Source: a virus
Taxonomy: Duplodnaviria; Heunggongvirae; Uroviricota; Caudoviricetes
DNA length: 16,037 nt
Direction: 5' to 3' (one strand)
Virus record (IMG/VR): IMGVR_UViG_2571042372_000005
The notes under the pieces are model-generated. The model was not told the DNA's origin and searched no databases. It was given only the letters and a program-made list of their open reading frames with translations. The position numbers and the translations under genes were made by a program. Below, in pieces: positions 1 to 14,108 of the stretch. Each line of letters begins with the position of its first letter. Position 1 is the first letter of the stretch.

Positions 1-384
1 GAAACGACATTTGTGCTGGATGCTCTGGAGCAGGCGTTATGGGCCCGTCGACCGTCCGGCACGGTCCATCACAGTGATAAAGGTTCTCAGTATGTATCGC
101 TGGCCTACACACAGCGGCTTAAGGAAGCCGGATTACTGGCATCAACAGGAAGTACAGGCGACTCGTATGACAACGCGATGGCGGAGAGCATCAATGGTCT
201 TTACAAAGCGGAGGTAATACACCGTAAGAGCTGGAAAAACCGTGCAGAAGTGGAACTGGCCACACTCACGTGGGTGGACTGGTATAACAATCGACGATTG
301 CTGGAAAGGCTGGGCCATACTCCTCCGGCAGAAGCAGAAAAAGCTTATTATGCTTCCATCGGAAACGATGATCTGGCAGCCTGA
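1..384 (+). CDS. IS629 OrfB transposase (DDE integrase core), 5'-partial at window edge
   Basis: Frame open from base 1 ([31 protein letters not shown]...), same C-terminus as the complete OrfB at 5282..6172; stop at 382..384. Confidence 0.9.
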   Translation, partial: ETTFVLDALEQALWARRPSGTVHHSDKGSQYVSLAYTQRLKEAGLLASTGSTGDSYDNAMAESINGLYKAEVIHRKSWKNRAEVELATLTWVDWYNNRRLLERLGHTPPAEAEKAYYASIGNDDLAA

Positions 385-426
385 GTTCACAGATAAAACA
401 CTCTCCAGGAAACCCGGGGCGGTTCA
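1..426 (+). mobile_element. IS629-like (IS3 family) insertion sequence, copy A, partial: only the 3' 426 bp lies in the window
   Basis: 1..426 matches the reverse complement of 5240..5665 with 2 synonymous substitutions in the stretches compared by eye; ends in the terminal inverted repeat ...CCAGGAAACCCGGGGCGGTTCA at 426. Confidence 0.9.
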
Positions 427-1193
427 ATACGGGAGAACTCATAACCGCAGTCATGACATCTGCCGGAATAGTTCGATTGAATTTGTTTTAGCGCCGGATA
501 CAGTTCGCGGAATAATGCCTGTGAGCGGTTGGCATAATCCCATAGCCATACAAGGCTGTTTGCTTCTTTTGCAGAAAGCTCGTTGGTTTTCTTCTCTTGT
601 TTGCCGATGAACTCACCTTCAAGCACTACCCTGTGGATGTACTCTACTGCTTGTGGTATCTGAGATGCATCAAGCTCTTCAATACTTTCCACATTGAAAC
701 GCTGATGAATCATTGCATAAGCTTCTGGGTACATTAGATGCTTTTTGCTGACTAGCATATTTACAGCATCACGAAGCGGAGTCCTGTCATCAACAGATGT
801 TTTCTTCCGTGCATTTGCTGCCTCTCCCTTTGTCCAGTAGTCATGCAGCACAGTAAAGCATTCTTCCTGGTACTGAATCAGTTTATCGCGGATGTCAGCA
901 CGAACTTTCTCAGGGTTGATGCTGAACAGCCATCCATTTAACTTCTTCAAAGGAAGGCAGAGTAGCTTACGAAGCTTACCATCAGCGGCAACCATGTTCA
1001 TATGAACACAGTTGAATTTGCTAATCTGCTTCATGAGTTTTGTTTGCTGCGTTGACCAGCTCATTCCGAGGTTTTCAACGATTGGCTTCATCGCAACATA
1101 TGCAACTCCGGCAGCCATGGCGGTGATAATTTGCTGACCGTTGAATGGCACGTAAGAGGTGTTCACTGCTTCTAAAATTGCTATACTATTCAT
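427..1193 (-). CDS. ant: Phage antirepressor (Ant-like), 3'-truncated by IS629 copy A
   Basis: ORF 387..1259 reads on into the IS inverted repeat, so the native stop is missing. Likely start is ATG at 1193 ([10 protein letters not shown]...) behind GGAGAAAA; an upstream in-frame ATG at 1259 is the alternative. Position downstream of an Arc-like gene matches P22 immI. Confidence 0.55.
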
Positions 1194-1425
1194 GTTGGTT
1201 TTTCTCCACGGATTTACCGACAACCGAAGCCCTGACTGTTCCAGCAGTTGGGGCTTCACTGTTTTGATTTCTTTGCCGCATCAAGCATCACTTCTGAAAA
1301 CGTGCGCTTGCCACTGAATACTCTTTCTCTTCTCAATTTTTCGTTCGTGCCAAATGATTCGCCATGAACAAAATTTGGTCTTAAAATGGTAATCGCAATC
1401 TCTTTGACTACTGCATCCAAGCGAA

Positions 1426-1578
1426 TCACACCGTTACCCCCTCTCTCTTCAGGCTGTCTATCAGGCGCTTGATAACCTCTGAGTTAAACGACCTGCACTC
1501 TTCCTTTGCCCTGCTACCGATAGCATCCTTTAACGACTGCGGCATCCTTACCAAAATCTTACTTATTTCTTTCTCCAT
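1426..1578 (-). CDS. arc: Arc-like ribbon-helix-helix repressor (50 aa)
   Basis: MEKEISKILVRMPQSLKDAIGSRAKEECRSFNSEVIKRLIDSLKREG resembles P22 Arc as recalled (RS-NSE core, KxEG tail); GGAGGG 5 nt before the ATG at 1578. Confidence 0.7.
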   Translation of the reverse strand: MEKEISKILVRMPQSLKDAIGSRAKEECRSFNSEVIKRLIDSLKREGVTV

Positions 1579-1692
1579 GTTACCCTCCACGCAAACAACT
1601 CTTTTCGAATACAAAAGATAGCAAAGTGAGTATATCTAGTCAAAATTTTTTTGCATACACTTTGCTATCAAATTGAATACCAAAGGTGTTAT
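1579..1692. promoter_or_regulatory. Divergent arc-ant / mnt control region with a 12-bp perfect inverted repeat
   Basis: GATAGCAAAGTG (1617..1628) and CACTTTGCTATC (1658..1669) separated by 29 bp; TTGACT -35-like hexamer on the - strand at 1638..1643; TTGCAT at 1650..1655 on the + strand. Confidence 0.5.
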
Positions 1693-1941
1693 ATGGCAAA
1701 GGGTGTGTCAATTTCTCCAACTACGGTAAGAATCCCTGAATCTTTACGCGAGGCTCTTGCTGTCAGAGCATCAAAAAATGGTCGCTCTGTTAACTCCGAG
1801 ATCGTCATGATTTTGCAAGCCGCGATTGATGAAGATAGGTCGCCAAAGTCAGTTGAGTCATTTGCTCAGCAAGAAGCTGATAAATTCAAAGAGGCGCTAC
1901 TTGAGACGCTAAAGACCATGTATGCTAAGGATGAAAAATAA
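1693..1941 (+). CDS. mnt: Mnt-like ribbon-helix-helix repressor (82 aa)
   Basis: VRIPESLREALAVRASKNGRSVNSEIVMILQAAI matches the Mnt/Arc RHH core (NGRS-NSE); C-terminus ...LKTMYAKDEK resembles P22 Mnt as recalled; divergent from arc. Confidence 0.75.
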   Translation: MAKGVSISPTTVRIPESLREALAVRASKNGRSVNSEIVMILQAAIDEDRSPKSVESFAQQEADKFKEALLETLKTMYAKDEK

Positions 1942-2477
1942 TGCTGCACACAATTCATTTCTTATGCCCTGTTAACACTGCCACTGTTGGGCAACTTCAG
2001 AACCACTGTCTCACCGCATTATCTCAAGGCGCAACTGAATTAAATATCCATATATCAAGTCAGGGAGGGGAAACTGCTGCTGGCTTTACTGCGTATAACT
2101 TTCTTAAGTCACTCCCTGTTACCGTTAGAACTCACAACATAAGCAATGTTGAATCCATAGCTAATATCGTTTTCCTGGCTGGCTCAGAACGTTTCGCAAA
2201 CCCATTATCAAGATTCCTGTTACATCCTCTATTATGGTGCTTTGCCTCCCCAGCCGCCGACCATGCCAGATTGAGAGAGTACGGGAAATGCCTCGATAAC
2301 GATCTTGATCGCTTCGTTGAGACGTTCAATATCGACATCGGAACCCATATTAGGTGGGCATCCCTGATAGCAGACTCGACCATTTTGGATGCTAACAAGG
2401 CTCTTGAGCATGGCATAATTAATTCCATAAAAACTGCAAGGCTGGCATCCAATCAGGCAAACTGGTGGGTTGTTTGA
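1941..2477 (+). CDS. ClpP-fold (S14/S49-like) serine peptidase homologue lacking the ClpP N-terminal region
   Basis: By-eye alignment to E. coli ClpP: IHISSQGGETAAGFTAY vs INSPGGVITAGMSIY; VESIAN Ser aligns with the GQAASMG catalytic Ser; RF-NPLSRFLLHP vs RFCLPNSRVMIHQP keeps the His; a later Asp (ADSTILD) is a candidate third residue. Start ATG overlaps the mnt stop (TAATG). Confidence 0.6.
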   Translation: MLHTIHFLCPVNTATVGQLQNHCLTALSQGATELNIHISSQGGETAAGFTAYNFLKSLPVTVRTHNISNVESIANIVFLAGSERFANPLSRFLLHPLLWCFASPAADHARLREYGKCLDNDLDRFVETFNIDIGTHIRWASLIADSTILDANKALEHGIINSIKTARLASNQANWWVV

Positions 2478-2503
2478 TGGGTAAATCATGATTACTCCTT
2501 ATA

Positions 2504-2527
2504 AAAAACCCACCTGACGGTGGGTTT
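2504..2527. terminator. Intrinsic terminator between convergent genes (possibly bidirectional)
   Basis: AAAAACCCACC-tgac-GGTGGGTTT hairpin; on the - strand it follows the 2526 stop and is followed by a T-run. Confidence 0.7.
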
Positions 2528-2975
2528 AGTCAAACATAGTGTTTCTAAAGTCTCTCGCATACCCTGCTAACACTCTCATTCTATTATGATTGTTAGCAGA
2601 CATGTGAGCTACAGGATGAAAAAGAGCAATCAATGAATACCTGTTCTCATCAAAAAGATTTTGTGCATAAACGAGAGCGGTATTGGATGTTTTATGCCAC
2701 TGCAACTTTTGCGGTGTGCTGATATCTGTGCCATTTTTTATTGGCTCAAATTTATTTTCACCAATTGCTAAATGAAGGTGCATAAGGCCTGCATCTTCAA
2801 TATCAGGAGGTCGATGATAAGAGGTGTCTCTGCCAAAATAGCTGGGCAACGTTCCCGTAGACTTGTAGATGATAAAATCATCTACAAGTGTTTGTTTTAA
2901 ATCAGGAAACTCAACAAAAACCGGGGAGAAAAAATAGTCAAAACTATCCTGATTATATTCCACGGTTACTTGCAT
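2526..2975 (-). CDS. yafO: YafO-family toxin homologue (149 aa)
   Basis: Matches E. coli YafO as recalled: DFIIYKSTGTLPSYFGRD vs DFISYKRDGVLPDIFGRD; HLHLAIGEN vs HIHLANENN; ALVYAQNLFDE...LIALFHPVAHMSANNHNRM vs HLVYCQGAFDE...LIAILKPEPHKLARDNNQM. GAGG SD; starts 8 nt after the upstream stop. Confidence 0.65.
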   Translation of the reverse strand: MQVTVEYNQDSFDYFFSPVFVEFPDLKQTLVDDFIIYKSTGTLPSYFGRDTSYHRPPDIEDAGLMHLHLAIGENKFEPIKNGTDISTPQKLQWHKTSNTALVYAQNLFDENRYSLIALFHPVAHMSANNHNRMRVLAGYARDFRNTMFD

Positions 2976-2983
2976 GTTTTACC

Positions 2984-3550
2984 TCAGTGGAAGTTACCAG
3001 AGTGAAACACACGAGTCCCGTGCTCAGCAAGCGCACGCAAACCAGCCATATCTACGGAACTATCAAAAACAACCGGAACACATGAGCGTTGTTTAATAAG
3101 ACTATTCAGGTTGGTTACGGCAGATCTGGCATCAGCAACAACGATATAGATATCTCTTGCGATCTCTTTAAAATCAGCAGAAGCTTCTTTGAATACCGAT
3201 TTCATTGCCCCTTCAAGTCCTCTCAATTGATGCTCTATCAATCGAGACTTTTCTGGTTCAATGATAGACAACACATTGTCTACATTCTCATCGGTAGCGT
3301 TTGCAAGAACACGATAAGCGTATTTCAGCATTCGAGACAATTCTTTAATCGAAGACACCGCCTCATGAAGCTCATCATTAGCCCGTTCACTGCTGAATGA
3401 GGATTGATGGTAAGCGTGCTGAACGTTATCAGTAACAACCACCTCACAACTGAACGCAGAAGCTTGCTGTAATAGCAAACCTATTGCGACTCCAGCTTTG
3501 GCAGCGTTCAAGCTAAACATTTCATCAATCCCATTAGTCTCATTGCTCAT
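2984..3550 (-). CDS. Hypothetical 188-aa protein encoded immediately upstream of the YafO-like toxin; putative non-canonical antitoxin/partner
   Basis: AAGGAGG SD before the ATG at 3550 (the ORF-track start at 3580 lacks an SD); no RHH/HTH or YafN/Phd-like motif recognisable; same operon as the toxin. Confidence 0.5.
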   Translation of the reverse strand: MSNETNGIDEMFSLNAAKAGVAIGLLLQQASAFSCEVVVTDNVQHAYHQSSFSSERANDELHEAVSSIKELSRMLKYAYRVLANATDENVDNVLSIIEPEKSRLIEHQLRGLEGAMKSVFKEASADFKEIARDIYIVVADARSAVTNLNSLIKQRSCVPVVFDSSVDMAGLRALAEHGTRVFHSGNFH

Positions 3551-3725
3551 ACAAACCTCCTTCTTATCGGAGATTATCAATAGCTATGCATCCATTGAAT
3601 ACACGCTATGCGCAATAAGTTTACGTCACGTGATATCATTATGCAACCACCGTTCTATCACCGACTAACTTTACTCCCACTCCTATACATCATCTGGTAT
3701 CCTGCGCAAAACTAAGGAGGTTGGT

Positions 3726-4076
3726 GTGAATGCTCAGTCTGTCATCATGGTTTTCCTTGGGCTGATTGTCGCAAAACTATATCCAGACTGGTGGAAAGGG
3801 GCATTAGCTACTGTCGCCATCTATTTGCTTTTATCCATCGTTAAGCGATCACTCGCTGAGACCGTAAATCAAGCAAAACGTTTCTCATTTAAGAGTTTAA
3901 TAAACTATGTTACTGGGCTTATTTTTTGCCTTTCAATTCTGATCGCTTCGGCTTTTTTGCCCGTATCAATAGCTAATTTTTTTGGCGCACCATATGAGGT
4001 AGGTTATCTATTCTCTGTTTCCTGTCTTGCCATTGCTCTTCTTTACCTGTGGACGAGATCAAAGAATAAAAATTAG
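3726..4076 (+). CDS. Small integral membrane protein (116 aa, 3-4 predicted TM helices); GTG start
   Basis: AAGGAGG (3714..3720) 5 nt before GTG at 3726; hydrophobic stretches VIMVFLGLIVAKL, ATVAIYLLLSIV, LIFCLSILIASAFLPV, YLFSVSCLAIALLYLW; sits at the P22 sieA-equivalent position. Confidence 0.6.
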   Translation: MNAQSVIMVFLGLIVAKLYPDWWKGALATVAIYLLLSIVKRSLAETVNQAKRFSFKSLINYVTGLIFCLSILIASAFLPVSIANFFGAPYEVGYLFSVSCLAIALLYLWTRSKNKN

Positions 4077-4093
4077 CCATCCGTGGCTGCCAG

Positions 4094-5239
4094 TTATTGA
4101 GCTTCTTTTTGTGATGCCTGTGCGACTCTGGTGAGCGATTGTGTGACCGTACTGATCGCTCTGTCATATGCTGTGCTACCTTTTGGCGTATTTGCCAGAC
4201 GTAACAAGGCATTTCGTATAACAGGGCTTTCGTATGCCTTCGCAGCTCCTCCTACGACACCAGCAGCAGGAACAACAAACGCAGCCGTTTTTAGCATCCC
4301 CGCTAATACTGCTGCGTTTATGATGCCACCACCAACTAACAATCCATAAAGCTGCTGACCATTTAAGTTTTGAACGTTCGCTTTTGCCGCGTGTCTTGTA
4401 TCGTTGAGGTATTTAATAACGCCGTCCAGTTCCTTTCCATGTACGCCTTTAAAGAAAGTTGCTGATTGCTTCCTGTTCCGGTGTAACGCATTAATAAACT
4501 TTTCAACACTAATATTTCCAGACGGATCAGTCGCCTTATCTACAGCATTCTGAACTATGGCTGCTCGTGCGTTTTGCCTACCATTGTCATCCAGAAGCCT
4601 GTAAAGCTGAGAACGTTCTGATGGGTTTTGGCTAAAAACGAGTTTTGTTACATCCTCAGGTGTAGCCTTGCCGCTGGCTATTGCCTTTTGAACGCGCGTT
4701 CTTCCCATCATGTCATTGAATCTAGCCCATGAGCGATCAACCCTAGACATATTGGCAGCTTCTTCTGAGCCTAGTTTTTGGGATACTGCTTTTTTCATAT
4801 CCGCTGTATATGCCTTGTAGACAATATCGCTGGCTTTCTGGAGCGTGTCTTTATCAACAGTCTCGTTTGAATTCATGAACCGCTTTCGAAGGTCAGTTCT
4901 GTTTTCTCTCGCCAGACGCAGGTCATTGGGTCCGCTGGTGATATCGTCTTTAAATTGCTGCAAGACTTTTACCGCGGCTCTATCCTGAGATTTGCCCGGG
5001 CGGCTTAACACGGCAATCTGATTGTCGATAGCTTTTACCGTGTTTGAGAGATCGACAGGGGTATCCCCCATAGCGTCAATTATGCGGTTATATCGCTTTC
5101 CTGCTGCCTCAATGAATTTTTGTTGCCCTTTAGTCGCAGATTCATAAAGCTGTTTATCAGAAATGCCACCCAGACCATCGCTAAATGTTCTGACTAAATT
5201 TTCTCGTGCTTGTTGTTGATTCAGCCGATTCTTACCGGT
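4094..5239 (-). CDS. 5'-truncated phage structural-type protein, possibly an ejection/internal virion protein; N-terminus replaced by IS629 copy B
   Basis: The reading frame is open from the IS junction at 5239 down to the stop at 4094, beyond the first ATG at 5071; C-terminal hydrophobic Gly/Ala-rich segment. Function is inferred from position only. Confidence 0.4.
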   Translation of the reverse strand, partial: TGKNRLNQQQARENLVRTFSDGLGGISDKQLYESATKGQQKFIEAAGKRYNRIIDAMGDTPVDLSNTVKAIDNQIAVLSRPGKSQDRAAVKVLQQFKDDITSGPNDLRLARENRTDLRKRFMNSNETVDKDTLQKASDIVYKAYTADMKKAVSQKLGSEEAANMSRVDRSWARFNDMMGRTRVQKAIASGKATPEDVTKLVFSQNPSERSQLYRLLDDNGRQNARAAIVQNAVDKATDPSGNISVEKFINALHRNRKQSATFFKGVHGKELDGVIKYLNDTRHAAKANVQNLNGQQLYGLLVGGGIINAAVLAGMLKTAAFVVPAAGVVGGAAKAYESPVIRNALLRLANTPKGSTAYDRAISTVTQSLTRVAQASQKEAQ

Positions 5240-5265
5240 TGAACCGCCCCGGGTTTCCTGGAGAG
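5240..5265. repeat. IS629 terminal inverted repeat (orfB-proximal end)
   Basis: TGAACCGCCCCGGGTTTCCTGGAGAG; partner at 6524..6549. Confidence 0.8.
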
Positions 5266-5281
5266 TGTTTTATCTGTGAAC

Positions 5282-6172
5282 TCAGGCTGCCAGATCATCG
5301 TTTCCGATGGAAGCATAATAAGCTTTTTCTGCTTCTGCCGGAGGAGTATGGCCCAGCCTTTCCAGCAATCGTCGATTGTTATACCAGTCCACCCACGTGA
5401 GTGTGGCCAGTTCCACTTCTGCACGGTTTTTCCAGCTCTTACGGTGTATTACCTCCGCTTTGTAAAGACCATTGATGCTCTCCGCCATCGCGTTGTCATA
5501 CGAGTCGCCTGTACTTCCTGTTGATGCCAGTAATCCGGCTTCCTTAAGCCGCTGTGTGTAGGCCAGCGATACATACTGAGAACCTTTATCACTGTGATGG
5601 ACCGTGCCGGACGGTCGACGGGCCCATAACGCCTGCTCCAGTGCATCCAGCACGAATGTCGTTTCCATGGACGATGAGACCCGCCACCCCACGATGTATC
5701 CGGCAAACACATCAATGATGAACGCCACATAGACGAAGCCCCGCCATGTGCTGACGTAAGTAAAATCAGCCACCCACAGCTGGTCAGGTCGTTCTGCCAC
5801 GAACTGACGGTTTACGCGGTCGCCTGCGGCAACGGCTTTCCGGCTGATGGTCGTACGGACCTTTTTACCCCGGAGAACACCGGCAAGTCCCATAACCGCC
5901 ATGAGACGTGCCACAGTGCATCTGGCCACTCTGATACCTTCCCGTAACAACTGACGCCAGACTTTACGCACACCGTATACCTTGTGATTTTCATCGTATA
6001 CGCGCTGTATCTCTTTCTTCAGCCAGTCATCGCGCTGCGCACGGGCACTGCGTTTATCCGGATGATGTCGCTGTTGCTGACAGTGGTAATACGTTGACGG
6101 GGCAATATGCAGTTCGCTGCATAGCGGTCCGACCCCGTACTGCTCACGCAGCTTATCCAGCAGTGGCATCAT
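5282..6172 (-). CDS. IS629 OrfB transposase (DDE integrase core)
   Basis: 296-aa ORF in the -1 frame relative to orfA; IS3-family catalytic-core-like sequence ([10 protein letters not shown]...[15 protein letters not shown]). Confidence 0.9.
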
Positions 6173-6495
6173 TTTTTCCAGAGGCGGTCGAACTCCGCCT
6201 TCGCAAAATAAGCGGAAGCCTGGCGAAGGATATCGTTACTGCGGCGCAGTTCACGATTTTCACGTTCCAGCTCTTTCAGACGCTGACGTTCAGCGGTGGT
6301 GAGCCCTCCATCACCGCCCCCGGTATCCCGCTCATGCTGGCGAACCCAGACACGCAGAGTCTCCGGCGTACAGCCAATCTTTGGAGCAATGGAACAAATT
6401 GTCGCCCATTGTGAGTCATATTCGCTCTGACTTTCCAGAACCATACGGACTGCCCGTTGACGGACTTCGGGGGAAAAACGAGTATTTTTAGTCAT
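6169..6495 (-). CDS. IS629 OrfA (HTH/leucine-zipper transposase N-terminal protein)
   Basis: 108 aa, [21 protein letters not shown]...; ends in the A-run GGAAAAAATGA that overlaps the orfB start, the usual site of -1 frameshifting in this family. Confidence 0.9.
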
Positions 6496-6523
6496 CCTGT
6501 TTACCTCTTTCTCAGGAAGTTTA

Positions 6524-6549
6524 GTCTCCAGGATTCCCGGGGCGGTTCA
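6524..6549. repeat. IS629 terminal inverted repeat (orfA-proximal end)
   Basis: Reverse complement reads TGAACCGCCCCGGGAATCCTGGAGAC. Confidence 0.8.
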
Positions 6550-7705
6550 TGATGATTGAGTCTGCGTCCTGTTCAATGCTTCCTGAATCACGCAAATCTG
6601 CGTTTGTCGGGCGTTTGTTTGGTCGCTTCTCAACATCGCGTGAAAGCTGACTCAGGGAAATAACCGGTGTTTTCAGGTCTTTCGCCATCGCCTTCAGGCT
6701 TCCGGAGATGTGAGCAATTGCGAGGTCGTTGCGGTCTGCTTTCGGCTTCTCAATCAGGCCAAGATAATCCGCCATGATGAGTGAGAGGTTTGGATTTTCC
6801 TGTTTGTGCCGTTCTGCGATTGAGCGTATTTCTTCGACCGATAATCGCGAGGCATCGACTACCCATACATCCAAATCTGCAAGCTGACTCATGCCGTTAG
6901 CAACACGTGCCCAGCCCTCGTCATCCATCGATGCAGGATTTCGCAGTACGCTAACCGACATCCTCCCGGCGTTGGCAATGCTTCGCTCTGCAATCTGCAA
7001 TGCGCTCATTTCCATTGAGAAAATCAATACCCCGCGCCGGACGTCAGAACCAGGAATAACGCGGCTTGCAACGCCTTCGGCAATCTTCAGCGCCAGTTCG
7101 GTTTTCCCCATACCAGGACGAGCAGCGATTATCACCAGGTCTTCCGCGTTCATCCCTCCGGTGATGGCATCAAGTTCTTCGATTCCGGTCTTCAGGGTAT
7201 CGGACTCTTCTCCGTTCCTCAGACGCCTGTCAAGCGTGTCAGTGTAGTCGGTGATGATTTCCCCTAACCGTACAGGTTTAACCTCGTCACGGGGCTTTCT
7301 GATGGCTGAGAGACGTTTTACAAGTTCATCCATCGCCTGACTCGATGCGTCGATGGTTCCGCTTTGGATTGGTTCACGCATTTCATCCATGATTTCCAGC
7401 ACCAGACGGCGGTGATAGTTATCCGCGACCATTCCGGCATATCCCTTCAGGTTTGCGGCGCTCGGGCAGTTTTTGCTGGTCATCAGGATTGACGTGAAAT
7501 GCTCCTCTCCGCACGCCTCGGCAACCATCAGCGCGTCGATTAGGTTTCTGTTTCTCGCCTGCTTCCGGATAACCTCGAAGGCTTTCCGGTAGAGCGGAAT
7601 TGAAAACGCTTCCGGCTCCAGCGTTGCAAGAACGTCACTGGCGGTTGGAGTTAATCCACCAATCAGCAGGCCACCGATAACGCTCGCTTCGATATCCTGT
7701 CTCAT
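6550..7705 (-). CDS. DnaB-family replicative helicase (P22 gene-12-like), 3'-truncated by IS629 copy B
   Basis: Walker [12 protein letters not shown]; DnaB C-terminal motifs [36 protein letters not shown], after which the frame runs into the IS inverted repeat; about 45-60 C-terminal residues missing by comparison with E. coli DnaB. Start ATG overlaps the upstream stop (ATGA). Confidence 0.85.
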
Positions 7706-8649
7706 GCAATCCCCCTGTCTGCAAACTTCCCTTCCCGAACTCCCGTTAACGAGTCTTCTCTCAGCAGGTAATCAAAATCAGCCGTCCAGCCCGTGTCGTT
7801 GTCTCCGAAGTAAAACGGCTTGGCCTGATGCACAAACGCCCTGACATACGCTCTGAAACCGTCCACGTTTGGCGTTTTCAGTTGCGGGATGATTTTCTTC
7901 AGGCGGCGTTTTCGTTTCTCGTTGACCGCAACAGCGTGTGGCAGTCTGTCACCGACTTCGGTGTTGTAGGCGTTCAGGAAGGATTCGTAGTCGATTCGTT
8001 CTGCCTTGCGACGTTCAGGTTTAACCTGCCCATCGCCTCCCCCATTGGGGGGTAGGGGGGTATTATTTATATTCTTGTTAATACCTTCTTGTTCATGATG
8101 TGCGGTTGTTTGTGCGGCTTCATGTGCGCTTTCATGTGCGGCATGTACGCTGAAAGCCGCGCTATTGCTGGCTTCATCATGTGCGGCATCATGTGCGGTT
8201 GTTTGTGCGGCTTCATGTGCGGGTAAATTGTCCATTTTTTGAGCATATTCATGGTAATTTGTGATGGTTATCACACGGCCTTTTTGCTTCTCTCCATCAA
8301 TGGAGATCATCCCCTCTTTCACAAAAACCTGAAGCATCCGCTCAACCTGATCACGGCTTGCTGGCTTGCCATGTCTGTCGCATAACTGAAGACCTAAATC
8401 AGCTGCTGTCACAACCAGTTGACCGGGTTGCAGATGCCATTCATGACCTTTGAAATTCGCTTTGTATGGCTTTCTGGCGGCATTCAGGAGAAGGTTTTCC
8501 CACAGGGTGCGAAGATAAACATCTTTCGCCCATGACTGTTTCAGAATGCTCCGGTACAACGGAATGTAACCAGTTTTCTGGTTCTCCATCCTGTTGCTCC
8601 TGCGCTCGTGTGCGGCGCTGAAATCGTAGATTTTTGCTGTATTGCTCAT
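7702..8649 (-). CDS. Replication initiator (lambda O / P22 gene-18-like) containing the origin iterons
   Basis: N-terminus [10 protein letters not shown]... recalls lambda O (MTNTAKILNF...); internal reiterated [10 protein letters not shown] peptide corresponds to DNA iterons; translationally coupled to the helicase. Confidence 0.7.
8055..8222. repeat. Putative phage replication origin: two clusters of 12-bp-period iterons (8094..8222) with an adjacent AT-rich stretch (8055..8093)
   Basis: (C/T)ATGTGCGG repeated about 9 times; a 35-bp unit is near-perfectly duplicated (8094..8128 and 8187..8221); the AT-rich stretch lies downstream in the direction of O transcription, as in lambda ori. Confidence 0.6.
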
Positions 8650-8651
8650 AA

Positions 8652-8924
8652 CTACCTGCCTTGACGAAAGACCTTAAGAACATCGTTAAACTGACTTACG
8701 GATATGTCTTCTTTGAGAAGCTTTTCCAGAAATGCGTTTGGAATGAACGTATATCCCTCCTCTTTTGGTAGAGACGGGAGCAACGCCCTCGCCTCAGCCT
8801 TCAGAAGCTCAGTTCTGGCAACTTTCACAAAAGAGATTTGAGTTCTTTCATCAATGGAACGAAGGAAGCGCAAACGCTTAGCTTCTTTGTGTGTATCAGG
8901 TGGATTAAAGCCTTTGTTTCGCAT
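8652..8924 (-). CDS. Hypothetical protein (90 aa) between cII and the initiator gene
   Basis: ATG at 8924 with GAGG SD; the ORF-track 181-aa version overlaps cII in another frame and is probably an over-extension. Confidence 0.5.
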   Translation of the reverse strand: MRNKGFNPPDTHKEAKRLRFLRSIDERTQISFVKVARTELLKAEARALLPSLPKEEGYTFIPNAFLEKLLKEDISVSQFNDVLKVFRQGR

Positions 8925-12186: not shown

Positions 12187-12792
12187 ATGAGCAAAGAATT
12201 TTACGCAAGACTGGCAGCTATTCAGGAGAATCTGAACGCGCCAAAGAATCAGTACAACTCATTCGGCAAATATAAATACAGAAGCTGCGAAGATATTCTT
12301 GAAGGCGTTAAGCCGTTACTGAACGGTCTGTTTTTATCAATCAGCGATGAAGTTGTGTTGATTGGTGATCGGTATTACGTGAAAGCCACGGCAACTATTA
12401 CCGATGGCGAAAACAGTCATACGGCAACCGCTCTTGCACGAGAGGAAGAAAGCAAGAAAGGAATGGATTCTGCACAAGTTACGGGAGCTACAAGCTCTTA
12501 TGCACGCAAGTATTGCCTCAATGGTTTGTTCGGCATTGATGATGCGAAAGATGCAGATACAGACGAGCATAAACATCAGCAGAACGCAGCAGCAAAGCAA
12601 TCAAAACCATCACTTACACCTGAACAGGTTCTAAAAGCATTCACTGACGCAGCAATGCAGAAAAACACCGTAGAAGAGCTTAAACAGGCGTTCGCCAAAG
12701 CGTGGAAGATGCTCGAAGGGACGCCGGAGCAGCACAAAGCGCAGGACGTTTACAACATCAGACGAGACGAATTAGAAGGGGCAACTGCTTAA
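12187..12792 (+). CDS. erf: Erf-family single-strand annealing recombinase (P22 Erf-like)
   Basis: MSKEFYARLAAIQENLNAPKNQYNSFGKYKYRSCEDILEGVKPLL... matches P22 Erf as recalled. Confidence 0.75.
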   Translation: MSKEFYARLAAIQENLNAPKNQYNSFGKYKYRSCEDILEGVKPLLNGLFLSISDEVVLIGDRYYVKATATITDGENSHTATALAREEESKKGMDSAQVTGATSSYARKYCLNGLFGIDDAKDADTDEHKHQQNAAAKQSKPSLTPEQVLKAFTDAAMQKNTVEELKQAFAKAWKMLEGTPEQHKAQDVYNIRRDELEGATA

Positions 12793-13175
12793 TGGCACAT
12801 TCGATTACAGTAAGACTAAACAAACCCGCAAGAGAGTTTCAGGGCGGGGAAAATATCGGATTCAACATCCGTGCTGGCGTTCAGTATTACGATCGCCAGA
12901 CAAAAAAGAAAGAATGGACAAACTACAGCGCCGTTGTATTTGCCAAGCCGGGAGCGCAAGCGGATTACTATCGTAGCGTTCTGGTTGAAGGAGGCATTGT
13001 AGAAATTACCGGAGAAAACATCAGGGTTGATGTTTATCAGGGGCAAAATGGTCAATCAATCACTCTTGAATTACTGAATGCAAAGATTGGATTTGCAACT
13101 TCAGGAAACAGCCAACAGCAGCAAAGTAGCAATCATCAAAATAATCCTGAATACGACGATTCCATCCCATTCTGA
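12792..13175 (+). CDS. ssb: Single-stranded DNA-binding protein-like (127 aa)
   Basis: C-terminal Gln/Asn-rich linker ending YDDSIPF, the SSB acidic-tip signature (E. coli SSB ends DDDIPF); TAATG overlap with erf. Confidence 0.6.
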   Translation: MAHSITVRLNKPAREFQGGENIGFNIRAGVQYYDRQTKKKEWTNYSAVVFAKPGAQADYYRSVLVEGGIVEITGENIRVDVYQGQNGQSITLELLNAKIGFATSGNSQQQQSSNHQNNPEYDDSIPF

Positions 13176-13198
13176 TTTAGAAAAATAAGGATTTAATT

Positions 13199-13495
13199 AT
13201 GCCAGCGCCTTTGTATGGTGCGGATGACCCGCGCCGCTGTTCCGGCAATTCCGTATCGGAGGTGCTGGATAAATTCAGAAAAAACTACGATCGAATAATG
13301 TCTCTACCGCAGGAAACGAAAGAGGAAAAGGAATTTCGCCACTGTATATGGCTTGCAGAGAAAGAAGAACGCGAGCGAATTTACCAGACATCAATCCGAC
13401 CATTCCGCAAAGCCACATATACCCACTTCCCTGAATATATCGACCCGCGCCTGCGTAATTACCGCTCACGCTATGGCGCTATCAGTAATGACTGA
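13199..13495 (+). CDS. Hypothetical protein (98 aa); the position after the recombination genes suggests an Abc/anti-RecBCD-type accessory gene, but this is unverified
   Basis: AAGGA SD; no motif recognised. Confidence 0.4.
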   Translation: MPAPLYGADDPRRCSGNSVSEVLDKFRKNYDRIMSLPQETKEEKEFRHCIWLAEKEERERIYQTSIRPFRKATYTHFPEYIDPRLRNYRSRYGAISND

Positions 13496-13589
13496 GGAAT
13501 TTACCATGAGAGGACTTGCTTAAGAGAAAGAGTTTCGGTTCTGTTAATGACAACAAATATCTGAATGCGATGTGGCGGAGTGGGAAGAA

Positions 13590-14108
13590 ATGAAACAAAT
13601 GTCACTAATTGAGATGGATGGTTTTCTGAAAGGTAAATGCATCCCAAGTGATTTAAAGGTTAACGAAACAAACGCTGAATACCTTGTCCGTAAGTTCGGT
13701 GAACTTGAATCAAAACTGGAAACGGCGTTGCGGGAGTGTAGTTCTGCTGGAATCACGATTGATAACCTTGAGGCTAAATGCGCGAAGATGGCTGCTGAAA
13801 ATACCTCACTTAAGCAATCTGAGAAGGAATTTAATGACTTTTGTCGTGAGGAGTTTAGCGAATGGGAAGATGATGTTACTGAAACCCCAGCCACCGATGC
13901 TTTTCTGGCTGAAGTGCGGGCGCAGGGGGTGGATGCTGCTATAGAAGCTGCAAAAAATCTGGTGGCCCAAGAATATGAGTATAAGGATTTCAAAGCGGCG
14001 CAGAGTGATTGCTGTATGCACCCTGGTTCAGACCTGGTAGGGAAGGTTGAAATGACTGAGTGGTTAGTTGACTTTGCTGCCCAGCTTCGCAAAGGAGGCA
14101 ACCAGTGA
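13590..14108 (+). CDS. Hypothetical acidic coiled-coil protein (about 172 aa)
   Basis: GGAG 9 nt before the ATG at 13590; an in-frame GTG at 13572 is the alternative start. Confidence 0.45.
   Translation: MKQMSLIEMDGFLKGKCIPSDLKVNETNAEYLVRKFGELESKLETALRECSSAGITIDNLEAKCAKMAAENTSLKQSEKEFNDFCREEFSEWEDDVTETPATDAFLAEVRAQGVDAAIEAAKNLVAQEYEYKDFKAAQSDCCMHPGSDLVGKVEMTEWLVDFAAQLRKGGNQ

Follow-up and report, generated by a model that had tools for sequence, protein, structure and literature searches.

A complete IS629 marks the scar of a 20-kb deletion in a P22-like prophage at argW of Escherichia coli

Introduction

The locus considered here lies in a 16,037-nucleotide stretch of caudoviricete DNA (IMG/VR record IMGVR_UViG_2571042372_000005), hereafter the window, in which an insertion sequence at positions 5240-6549 stands between two truncated genes. 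IS-bounded deletions without target-site duplications are textbook events, and the order of genes in P22 runs from replication through nin, Q, lysis, terminase, portal, scaffold, capsid, gp4/10/26/14/7/20/16 and immI (mnt, arc, ant) to the tailspike. The initial annotation, drawn from the letters of the window, took the arrangement for an IS-mediated deletion or rearrangement within such a map. The question was what had been lost at this copy of the element, which we call copy B (copy A lies at the window start), and by what route.

Results

The element and its flanks

Copy B is 1310 bp long, with its transposase genes on the minus strand. Its 25-nt terminal inverted repeats, IRR at the orfB end (5240-5264, TGAACCGCCCCGGGTTTCCTGGAGA) and IRL at the orfA end (6525-6549), match at 23 of 25 positions (92% complementary), in keeping with what characterizes IS629, a length of about 1310 bp and imperfect repeats of about 25 bp that begin TG and end CA. 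Both of its reading frames are intact: orfA (6169-6495, minus strand; 108 aa, Pfam HTH_Tnp_1) overlaps orfB (5282-6172, minus strand; 296 aa, Pfam rve, the DDE core, with HTH_21 and rve_3) at 6169-6172. An ALIL programmed -1 frameshift pseudoknot spans 6098-6214 on the same strand (Rfam RF01497, 120.2 bits, E=3e-32). As references for identity, set at 95% or more, we used depositor-annotated elements; a copy that PGAP labels "IS629 family" proved to be partial. Copy B was 99.5% identical over 1310 bp to elements deposited as "IS3 family IS629" from Stx phages (LC567824.1, LC567828.1), 100% identical to the IS in a phage 21 int record, and 96.2% identical to O157 copies named IS1203 by PGAP; other copies of the element in sister genomes were likewise 100% identical. 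Considering its length, its inverted repeats, its two frames with their frameshift signal and its identity to annotated elements, assignment of copy B to IS629 of the IS3 family is justified, and the first description of a complete 1310-bp IS with intact inverted repeats stands. Its ends are fixed to the base, as 100%-identical copies elsewhere diverge from the window exactly at 5239/5240 and 6549/6550.

The left flank of copy B ends in CTTACCGGT and the right flank begins with TGATGATTG. The last triplet kept on the left, GGT (5237-5239; intact site ttcttaccggt/tccaaaaaa), belongs to a gp16-like gene and is presumably half of a former duplication, whereas the first triplet kept on the right, TGA (6550-6552; intact site gatagagca/tgatgattgag), belongs to a helicase gene and differs from its counterpart on the left. 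A search of these flanks for a 3- or 4-bp target duplication found none, as had been claimed from the sequence. Simple insertions of the same element at related loci carry 3-bp duplications (TAC, ACA, ATA, CGG, CAT, CTA), and for this reason the absence at copy B is meaningful; it is explained by deletion and is no argument against the identity of the element as IS629.

Both genes abutting copy B are remnants on the minus strand. On the right, a DnaB-type replicative helicase gene retains its 5' part (6550-7705; 385 codons, with DnaB and DnaB_C domains) and has lost 221 bp at its 3' end; the DnaB_C profile is matched only to position 209 of 255, and the open frame continues into the IS, where it reaches a stop at 6521. 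On the left is the 3' remnant (4094-5239; 381 codons plus stop) of a gene for a DNA-transfer/injection protein of 670 aa in full length, which has lost 867 bp at its 5' end. The remnant matches positions 269-667 of the 668 in PHROG 770 ("DNA transfer protein") and is labeled "injection protein, missing N-terminus" by PGAP, and in intact relatives the gene occupies the P22 gp16 position, directly after a gp20-like ejection protein. The partners of copy B are thus the two that had been proposed at the outset, a DnaB-like helicase without its C-terminus and a virion-type gene without its N-terminus.

Inside the O-like replication protein gene (Pfam Phage_rep_O) we saw two repeat clusters at window 8094-8221 that share a 12-nt unit ending TGTGCGG. 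These are probably the iterons of the prophage origin, kept despite the truncated helicase gene.

The intact counterpart and the missing interval

The whole window matches three complete E. coli chromosomes, namely AH20K059 (from blood, Melbourne), OZ546967, and B20123 (from seawater, Ireland), and it differs from AH20K059 by only two bases (window 12 and 24, both in copy A). The prophage lies between tRNA-Arg (argW)/intS and torI/dsdC, and many ExPEC and APEC genomes, including APEC O1 and ATCC 11775, have an intact P22-like prophage at the argW locus. We used that of APEC O1 (NC_008563.1, 2570223-2610311; hereafter L005) as the coordinate reference for all scars. It shares the integration site and gene order of the prophage in the window, with only two mismatches and two gaps over the right 9.5 kb, but it has no IS629 and still contains both of the lost segments, 20,130 bp at copy B and 2,974 bp at copy A.

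Alignment of the flanks with this intact prophage, the check that the initial annotation had proposed, located the missing segment. Window 427-5239 corresponds to L005 11880-16692 (4,813 bp) and window 6550-8728 to L005 36823-39001, in both cases at 100% identity, on the same strand and collinear, and the interval absent at copy B is L005 16693-36822, exactly 20,130 bp with 29 whole annotated CDSs. The lost genes are two small genes downstream of the helicase; ninB, ninE, ninX, ninF, a KilAC antirepressor, a DUF1364 gene, rusA, and ninH; Q, the holin, endolysin and Rz-type lysis genes, and rha; both terminase subunits (small and large), the portal, the scaffold, the major capsid protein of P22 type, gp4, and gp10; and three further virion genes with the gp20-like ejection protein. 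These are exactly the nin, Q, lysis, terminase and head functions that had been predicted to lie between the two flanks. Annotation of the APEC O1 counterpart confirms the P22 (Lederbergvirus-type) gene order, and the P22-like assignment is also backed by P22_AR domains in ant and by the PHROG 770 match of the gene in the gp16 position.

We have almost no doubt that the P22-like prophage at argW has undergone a 20,130-bp deletion, with copy B at the scar. Three independently assembled complete genomes agree on its junctions to the base, and a fourth, FDAARGOS_1301, shares the left one. A search of E. coli genomes with a synthetic query for the reciprocal junctions (helicase 3' end-TGA-IRR and IRL-GGT-gp16 5' end), in which a perfect match would rank top, found none in AH20K059, OZ546967 or B20123. 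Since the reciprocal junctions are absent from genomes that have the window arrangement, the segment was deleted and not moved. The collinear, 100%-identical flanks and this result support the proposal of an IS-mediated deletion that left the prophage defective; a matching duplication, which had been named as counting against it, is absent from the flanks.

Copy A and the retained segment

Copy A (1-426, plus strand) is cut by the start of the window, is inverted relative to copy B, and is itself a scar without duplication, at the junction of the P22-type antirepressor gene ant and the tailspike gene. Beside it lies the 5' remnant of ant (427-1193, minus strand; P22_AR_N, with P22_AR_C truncated), which has lost 136 bp of its 3' end. 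In AH20K059 copy A is complete, with flanks GTC and ATA, and joins ant to the last 207 bp of the tailspike gene, so that the prophage has lost its tailspike as well; the scar corresponds to the loss of L005 8906-11879 (2,974 bp).

At IS positions 403 and 415 (window 24 and 12) copy A has the bases of a 97.9%-identical IS629 variant (found in AH19K002, L003:23071-24380), and at IS positions 229 and 364 it has type-1 bases. Copy A in the source strain is therefore a chimera with a crossover between IS positions 364 and 403, which shows that homologous exchange between IS copies has taken place in that strain. The chimera possibly also reflects another rearrangement, beyond the left end of the window.

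Between the two IS copies, window 1426-4076 holds immI (arc and a second Arc-family, mnt-like gene) together with cargo consisting of a ClpP-like protease (1941-2477), a YafO-family toxin (2526-2975) with a 198-aa ORF upstream, and small hypothetical genes. These accessory genes survive in every deletion variant that we saw among the sister strains. Overall, the remnant keeps int, a xis-like torI, the immunity region, erf, anti-RecBCD, immI (mnt/arc), and the cargo genes; with replication, lysis, packaging and head functions gone, and the tailspike gone through copy A, it is defective.

Scars in sister strains

In sister strains of the window lineage the IS is of one and the same type, with 0-1 differences over its 1310 bp, and several of these strains have scars of their own in this prophage. 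The scar in FDAARGOS_1301 (L005 16692/38591) shares its gp16 junction exactly with the window (16692/36823); the second junction is displaced by 1,768 bp, into the O-like replication gene. Such a nested pair has the form expected of an adjacent deletion, but another insertion with subsequent recombination would fit it too. Other scars were found in MS8345 (L005 15747/34313), in FDAARGOS_1300 (15753/32769), in AH19K002 (21226/28057, in the opposite orientation, and 9214/12177), and in BEN5202, where the helicase 3' end (ending at L005 36823) is joined via the IS to erf. None of the scar copies in sister strains has a duplication. Simple insertions with duplications numbered three in this prophage, one in erf (ACA), one flanked by ATA, and the 97.9% variant copy upstream of ninB (TAC), so that among prophage IS copies in the lineage those without duplication outnumber simple insertions by about nine distinct junctions to three. 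IS629-anchored loss of prophage parts has thus occurred at least eight or nine times in this one lineage.

We considered whether these scars could be traced to fewer events. A single ancestral insertion with deletions in both directions does not account for all of them, as BEN5202 and AH19K002 keep intact DNA at the required site and the AH19K002 copy is in the opposite orientation. Nor do we favor common descent of the helicase junctions in BEN5202 and the window: with the last base of the BEN5202 flank and the first base of the window flank both at 36823, the pair would imply a 1-bp duplication. The two junctions are probably independent, as otherwise a 2-bp loss would be needed.

Some of the sister-strain copies have features of their own. 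In AH19K002 (L003), a complete IS629 at the ant junction is directly followed, at 5041-5066, by a 26-nt exact tandem duplicate of the IS terminus (CTCTCCAGGAAACCCGGGGCGGTTCA); this solo end suggests that one IS inserted into or beside another and that most of one copy was then lost. In MS8345 (L010), the two scar copies (7118-8426 and 12522-13830) are 1309 bp long and share a 1-nt deletion in a C5 run (IS position ~1078), and the copy inserted in erf is intact. We did not use the shared deletion as evidence of copying or conversion between IS copies, as a sequencing error is also conceivable in such a C5 homopolymer.

Recurrent insertion at both breakpoints

Both breakpoints of the copy B deletion coincide with sites at which IS629 or IS1203 has integrated recurrently and in the same orientation. 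On the gp16 side (L005 16690-16693, equivalent to window 5237-5239), a simple IS1203 insertion in the pig ETEC strain ETEC1731 has the orientation of copy B, lies 1 bp from the breakpoint and is flanked by a CGG duplication; the gp16 homolog that it interrupts, which belongs to an unrelated element, is diverged, with identities of 95% and 88% for the parts to either side of the IS. On the helicase side (L005 36821-36825, equivalent to window 6550), O157:H7 BB24-1 and two further O157 genomes have a simple insertion with a CAT duplication, in the orientation of copy B and 2 bp from the breakpoint, in a helicase homolog that is 98% identical. ERL05-1306 has another simple insertion, again in the copy B orientation, 45 bp from the helicase breakpoint with a CTA duplication, and the helicase junction of BEN5202 is at the BB24-1 position.

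At the 3' end of the DnaB-type helicase gene we therefore count at least four apparently independent events (the window lineage, BEN5202, the O157 BB24-1 group, and ERL05-1306), and in gp16-type genes two events 1 bp apart (the window lineage and ETEC1731). This coincidence with independent insertion sites argues that the two deletion endpoints were set by target preference of the transposase and not by random breakage. The gp16 target CGGTTCCA is similar to CGGTTCA, the terminus of the IS, and it is possible that this likeness is what attracts the element. The recurrence across pathotypes of orientation-specific IS629 sites in helicase and gp16 genes is the only point here that is mildly new.

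The ETEC1731 element that carries the gp16 homolog is small and integrase-bearing, lies between dinD and yicC (L006 14240-33621), and contains a gp20 homolog and a TOPRIM/DUF927 primase-like gene but no head genes. It looks satellite-like, or else like a decayed element with P22-type ejection genes.

Discussion

Route to the deletion

The route that we favor, by a modest preference, is insertion of two IS629 copies in direct orientation followed by homologous recombination between them. One IS629 would have entered the helicase gene in its 3' part and duplicated TGA there, and another would have entered the gp16-like gene in the same orientation and duplicated GGT; the predicted parental junctions are GGGGCGGTTCA-GGT-TCCAAAAAAAGG and GATAGAGCA-TGA-TGAACCGCCCC. 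Host recombination of the RecA type between the direct 1.3-kb copies would then have excised the interval and one copy of the IS, leaving a single hybrid IS with the GGT half on its left and the TGA half on its right, GGT[IS]TGA, in a remnant that would be unable to replicate, lyse, package or build particles. The junction has what recombination predicts, a single intact IS, flanks collinear with the undeleted genome, and no duplication. Because the insertions near both sites share the orientation of copy B, two such insertions would form direct repeats and give exactly this arrangement after recombination, and the simple insertions with 3-bp duplications in sister strains (erf, ACA; ATA) indicate that insertion into this prophage is frequent. 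The chimera at copy A, a product of homologous exchange between IS copies in the source strain, also favors the two-step route. In addition, IS3-family elements transpose by copy-out-paste-in, a mechanism that restores the donor and of itself removes no flanking DNA (reviewed in bioRxiv 10.1101/2023.06.07.543989).

Among 5,426 complete E. coli genomes we found neither the two-copy parental state nor a simple insertion at the exact predicted sites, and scanning IMG/VR and the JGI metagenomes for the exact patterns gave no intermediate at these sites; the nearest to the parental state were the near-site insertions, 1-2 bp off and in other pathotypes. We consider the absence of the two-copy state from these samples to be weak evidence against the two-step route. 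Also counting against it, copy B is 100% identical to the sister copies and has no internal sign of a hybrid, and both the excess of duplication-free copies over simple insertions and the nested junction in FDAARGOS_1301 are also predicted by deletion in one step.

Such a one-step, transposase-mediated adjacent deletion is a substantial possibility, if one that we hold to be less probable. Here a single IS629 at the gp16 or the helicase site would attack the other site in cis, possibly through a tandem-dimer/circle-junction synapse or a "sloppy" first strand transfer with help from the IS-excision enhancer (IEE), and the IS would stay at its original outer junction while the DNA up to the new target was deleted. 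The FDAARGOS_1301 pair, with identical gp16 junctions and different second junctions, is of the kind that this would produce; scar copies outnumber simple insertions in the prophage; and some sister-strain breakpoints lie 4-6 bp apart (15747 vs 15753; 8901 vs 8905), resembling nibbling from the IS ends. There is experimental precedent as well, in transposase-dependent deletions beside an intact IS3 seen even without IEE (PMC8860574) and in IS629/IEE deletions adjacent to the IS that range from a few nucleotides to >40 kb (PMC9943667). The preference for site and orientation would guide intramolecular strand transfer equally well. However, since copy-out-paste-in regenerates the donor, an extra, undefined resolution step is required, and the products described for IEE generally lack the IS and are joined at microhomologies, whereas here both IS ends are intact to the base. 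No feature of the end product demands the one-step route.

An extension of this alternative gives more weight to the shared sites. The helicase 3' end and mid-gp16 would be sequence- and orientation-specific IS629 hot spots hit independently in EHEC, ETEC, APEC and ExPEC, and one-step joining by transposase at these spots, rather than recombination between chance insertions, would bring about convergent and rapid disarmament of prophages in IS629-rich lineages. We think this unlikely.

It is very improbable that the segment was not deleted at all, having been inverted or translocated via the inverted copy A or another IS629 so that the late genes now lie elsewhere in the chromosome, and this explanation is already largely refuted. 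Copy A is indeed inverted relative to copy B, and an IS-bounded inversion does occur in the lineage (the emrK'-IS-'intS junction of B20123); against this, the 4.8 kb that separates copies A and B has kept its ancestral orientation, neither a helicase 3' end-IS nor an IS-gp16 5' end junction was seen in any genome with the window arrangement, and the argW and dsdC chromosomal flanks are in place in AH20K059. We also rejected an inversion between copies A and B as the cause of the missing duplication, given the ancestral orientation of the 4.8-kb segment and the fact that the reverse complement of 427-429 is not TGA. The B20123 junction itself (L004 5001-6310) is a third IS629, flanked by ATG and ATC without a duplication, that joins a truncated emrK to a 5'-truncated intS; in B20123, accordingly, the entire prophage remnant and dsdCXA-emrY would have been inverted together between IS copies.

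An assembly artefact, in which collapse across two IS629 copies created a false junction, is scarcely credible: IS copies are classic collapse points of short-read assemblies, but three complete genomes produced by separate projects (Australia, Ireland, and one other) agree in these junctions to the base, and a fourth shares the left one.

Relation to known systems

Deletion in the P22-like prophage, by two insertions and recombination or otherwise, has close parallels. Inactivation and deletion of O157:H7 prophage genes by IS629 is well documented (Ooka et al. 2009 and Kusumoto et al. 2011, as cited in PMC9943667 and PMC4587872). As described in these sources, that system has the same element (99.5% identity), the same preference for prophages, and genes interrupted or deleted with the IS at the junction; it differs from ours in that the prophages there are lambdoid and in EHEC, whereas here the prophage is P22-like, lies at argW and belongs to E. 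coli of the extraintestinal/avian-pathogenic type. The IS is, moreover, retained here with both ends intact, unlike IEE-type excision products. Kanai et al. 2022 (PMC8860574) likewise obtained deletions of various lengths from the inverted repeat of an IS3-family element, some of which left the IS intact without IEE, but in a plasmid assay with induced transposase and with deletions under 2 kb.

In the context of experimental evolution, the IS150-mediated rbs deletions of the Lenski long-term lines reportedly arise by a new insertion that then recombines with a resident copy. They resemble the present case in involving an IS3-family element, reportedly with a resident IS as anchor, variable far endpoints, and a single IS without duplication left behind; the difference is that their resident copy is known from the ancestor, whereas here a single-copy ancestor is unsampled at either site.

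The copy B scar is therefore a known kind of event, in a newly and fully mapped example from an ExPEC/APEC P22-like prophage. In practical terms its value is modest: the junctions can serve as markers, specific to the clone, of a sublineage of ExPEC/APEC rich in IS629, and the series of sister-strain scars is a natural data set on how IS3-family elements make flanking deletions. The scar opens no new question, and losses of this kind are an ordinary and well-known means by which bacteria cripple resident viruses; it is a clean example of how an expanding IS turns an inducible P22-like prophage into a fixed remnant that keeps its immunity, recombination and cargo genes.
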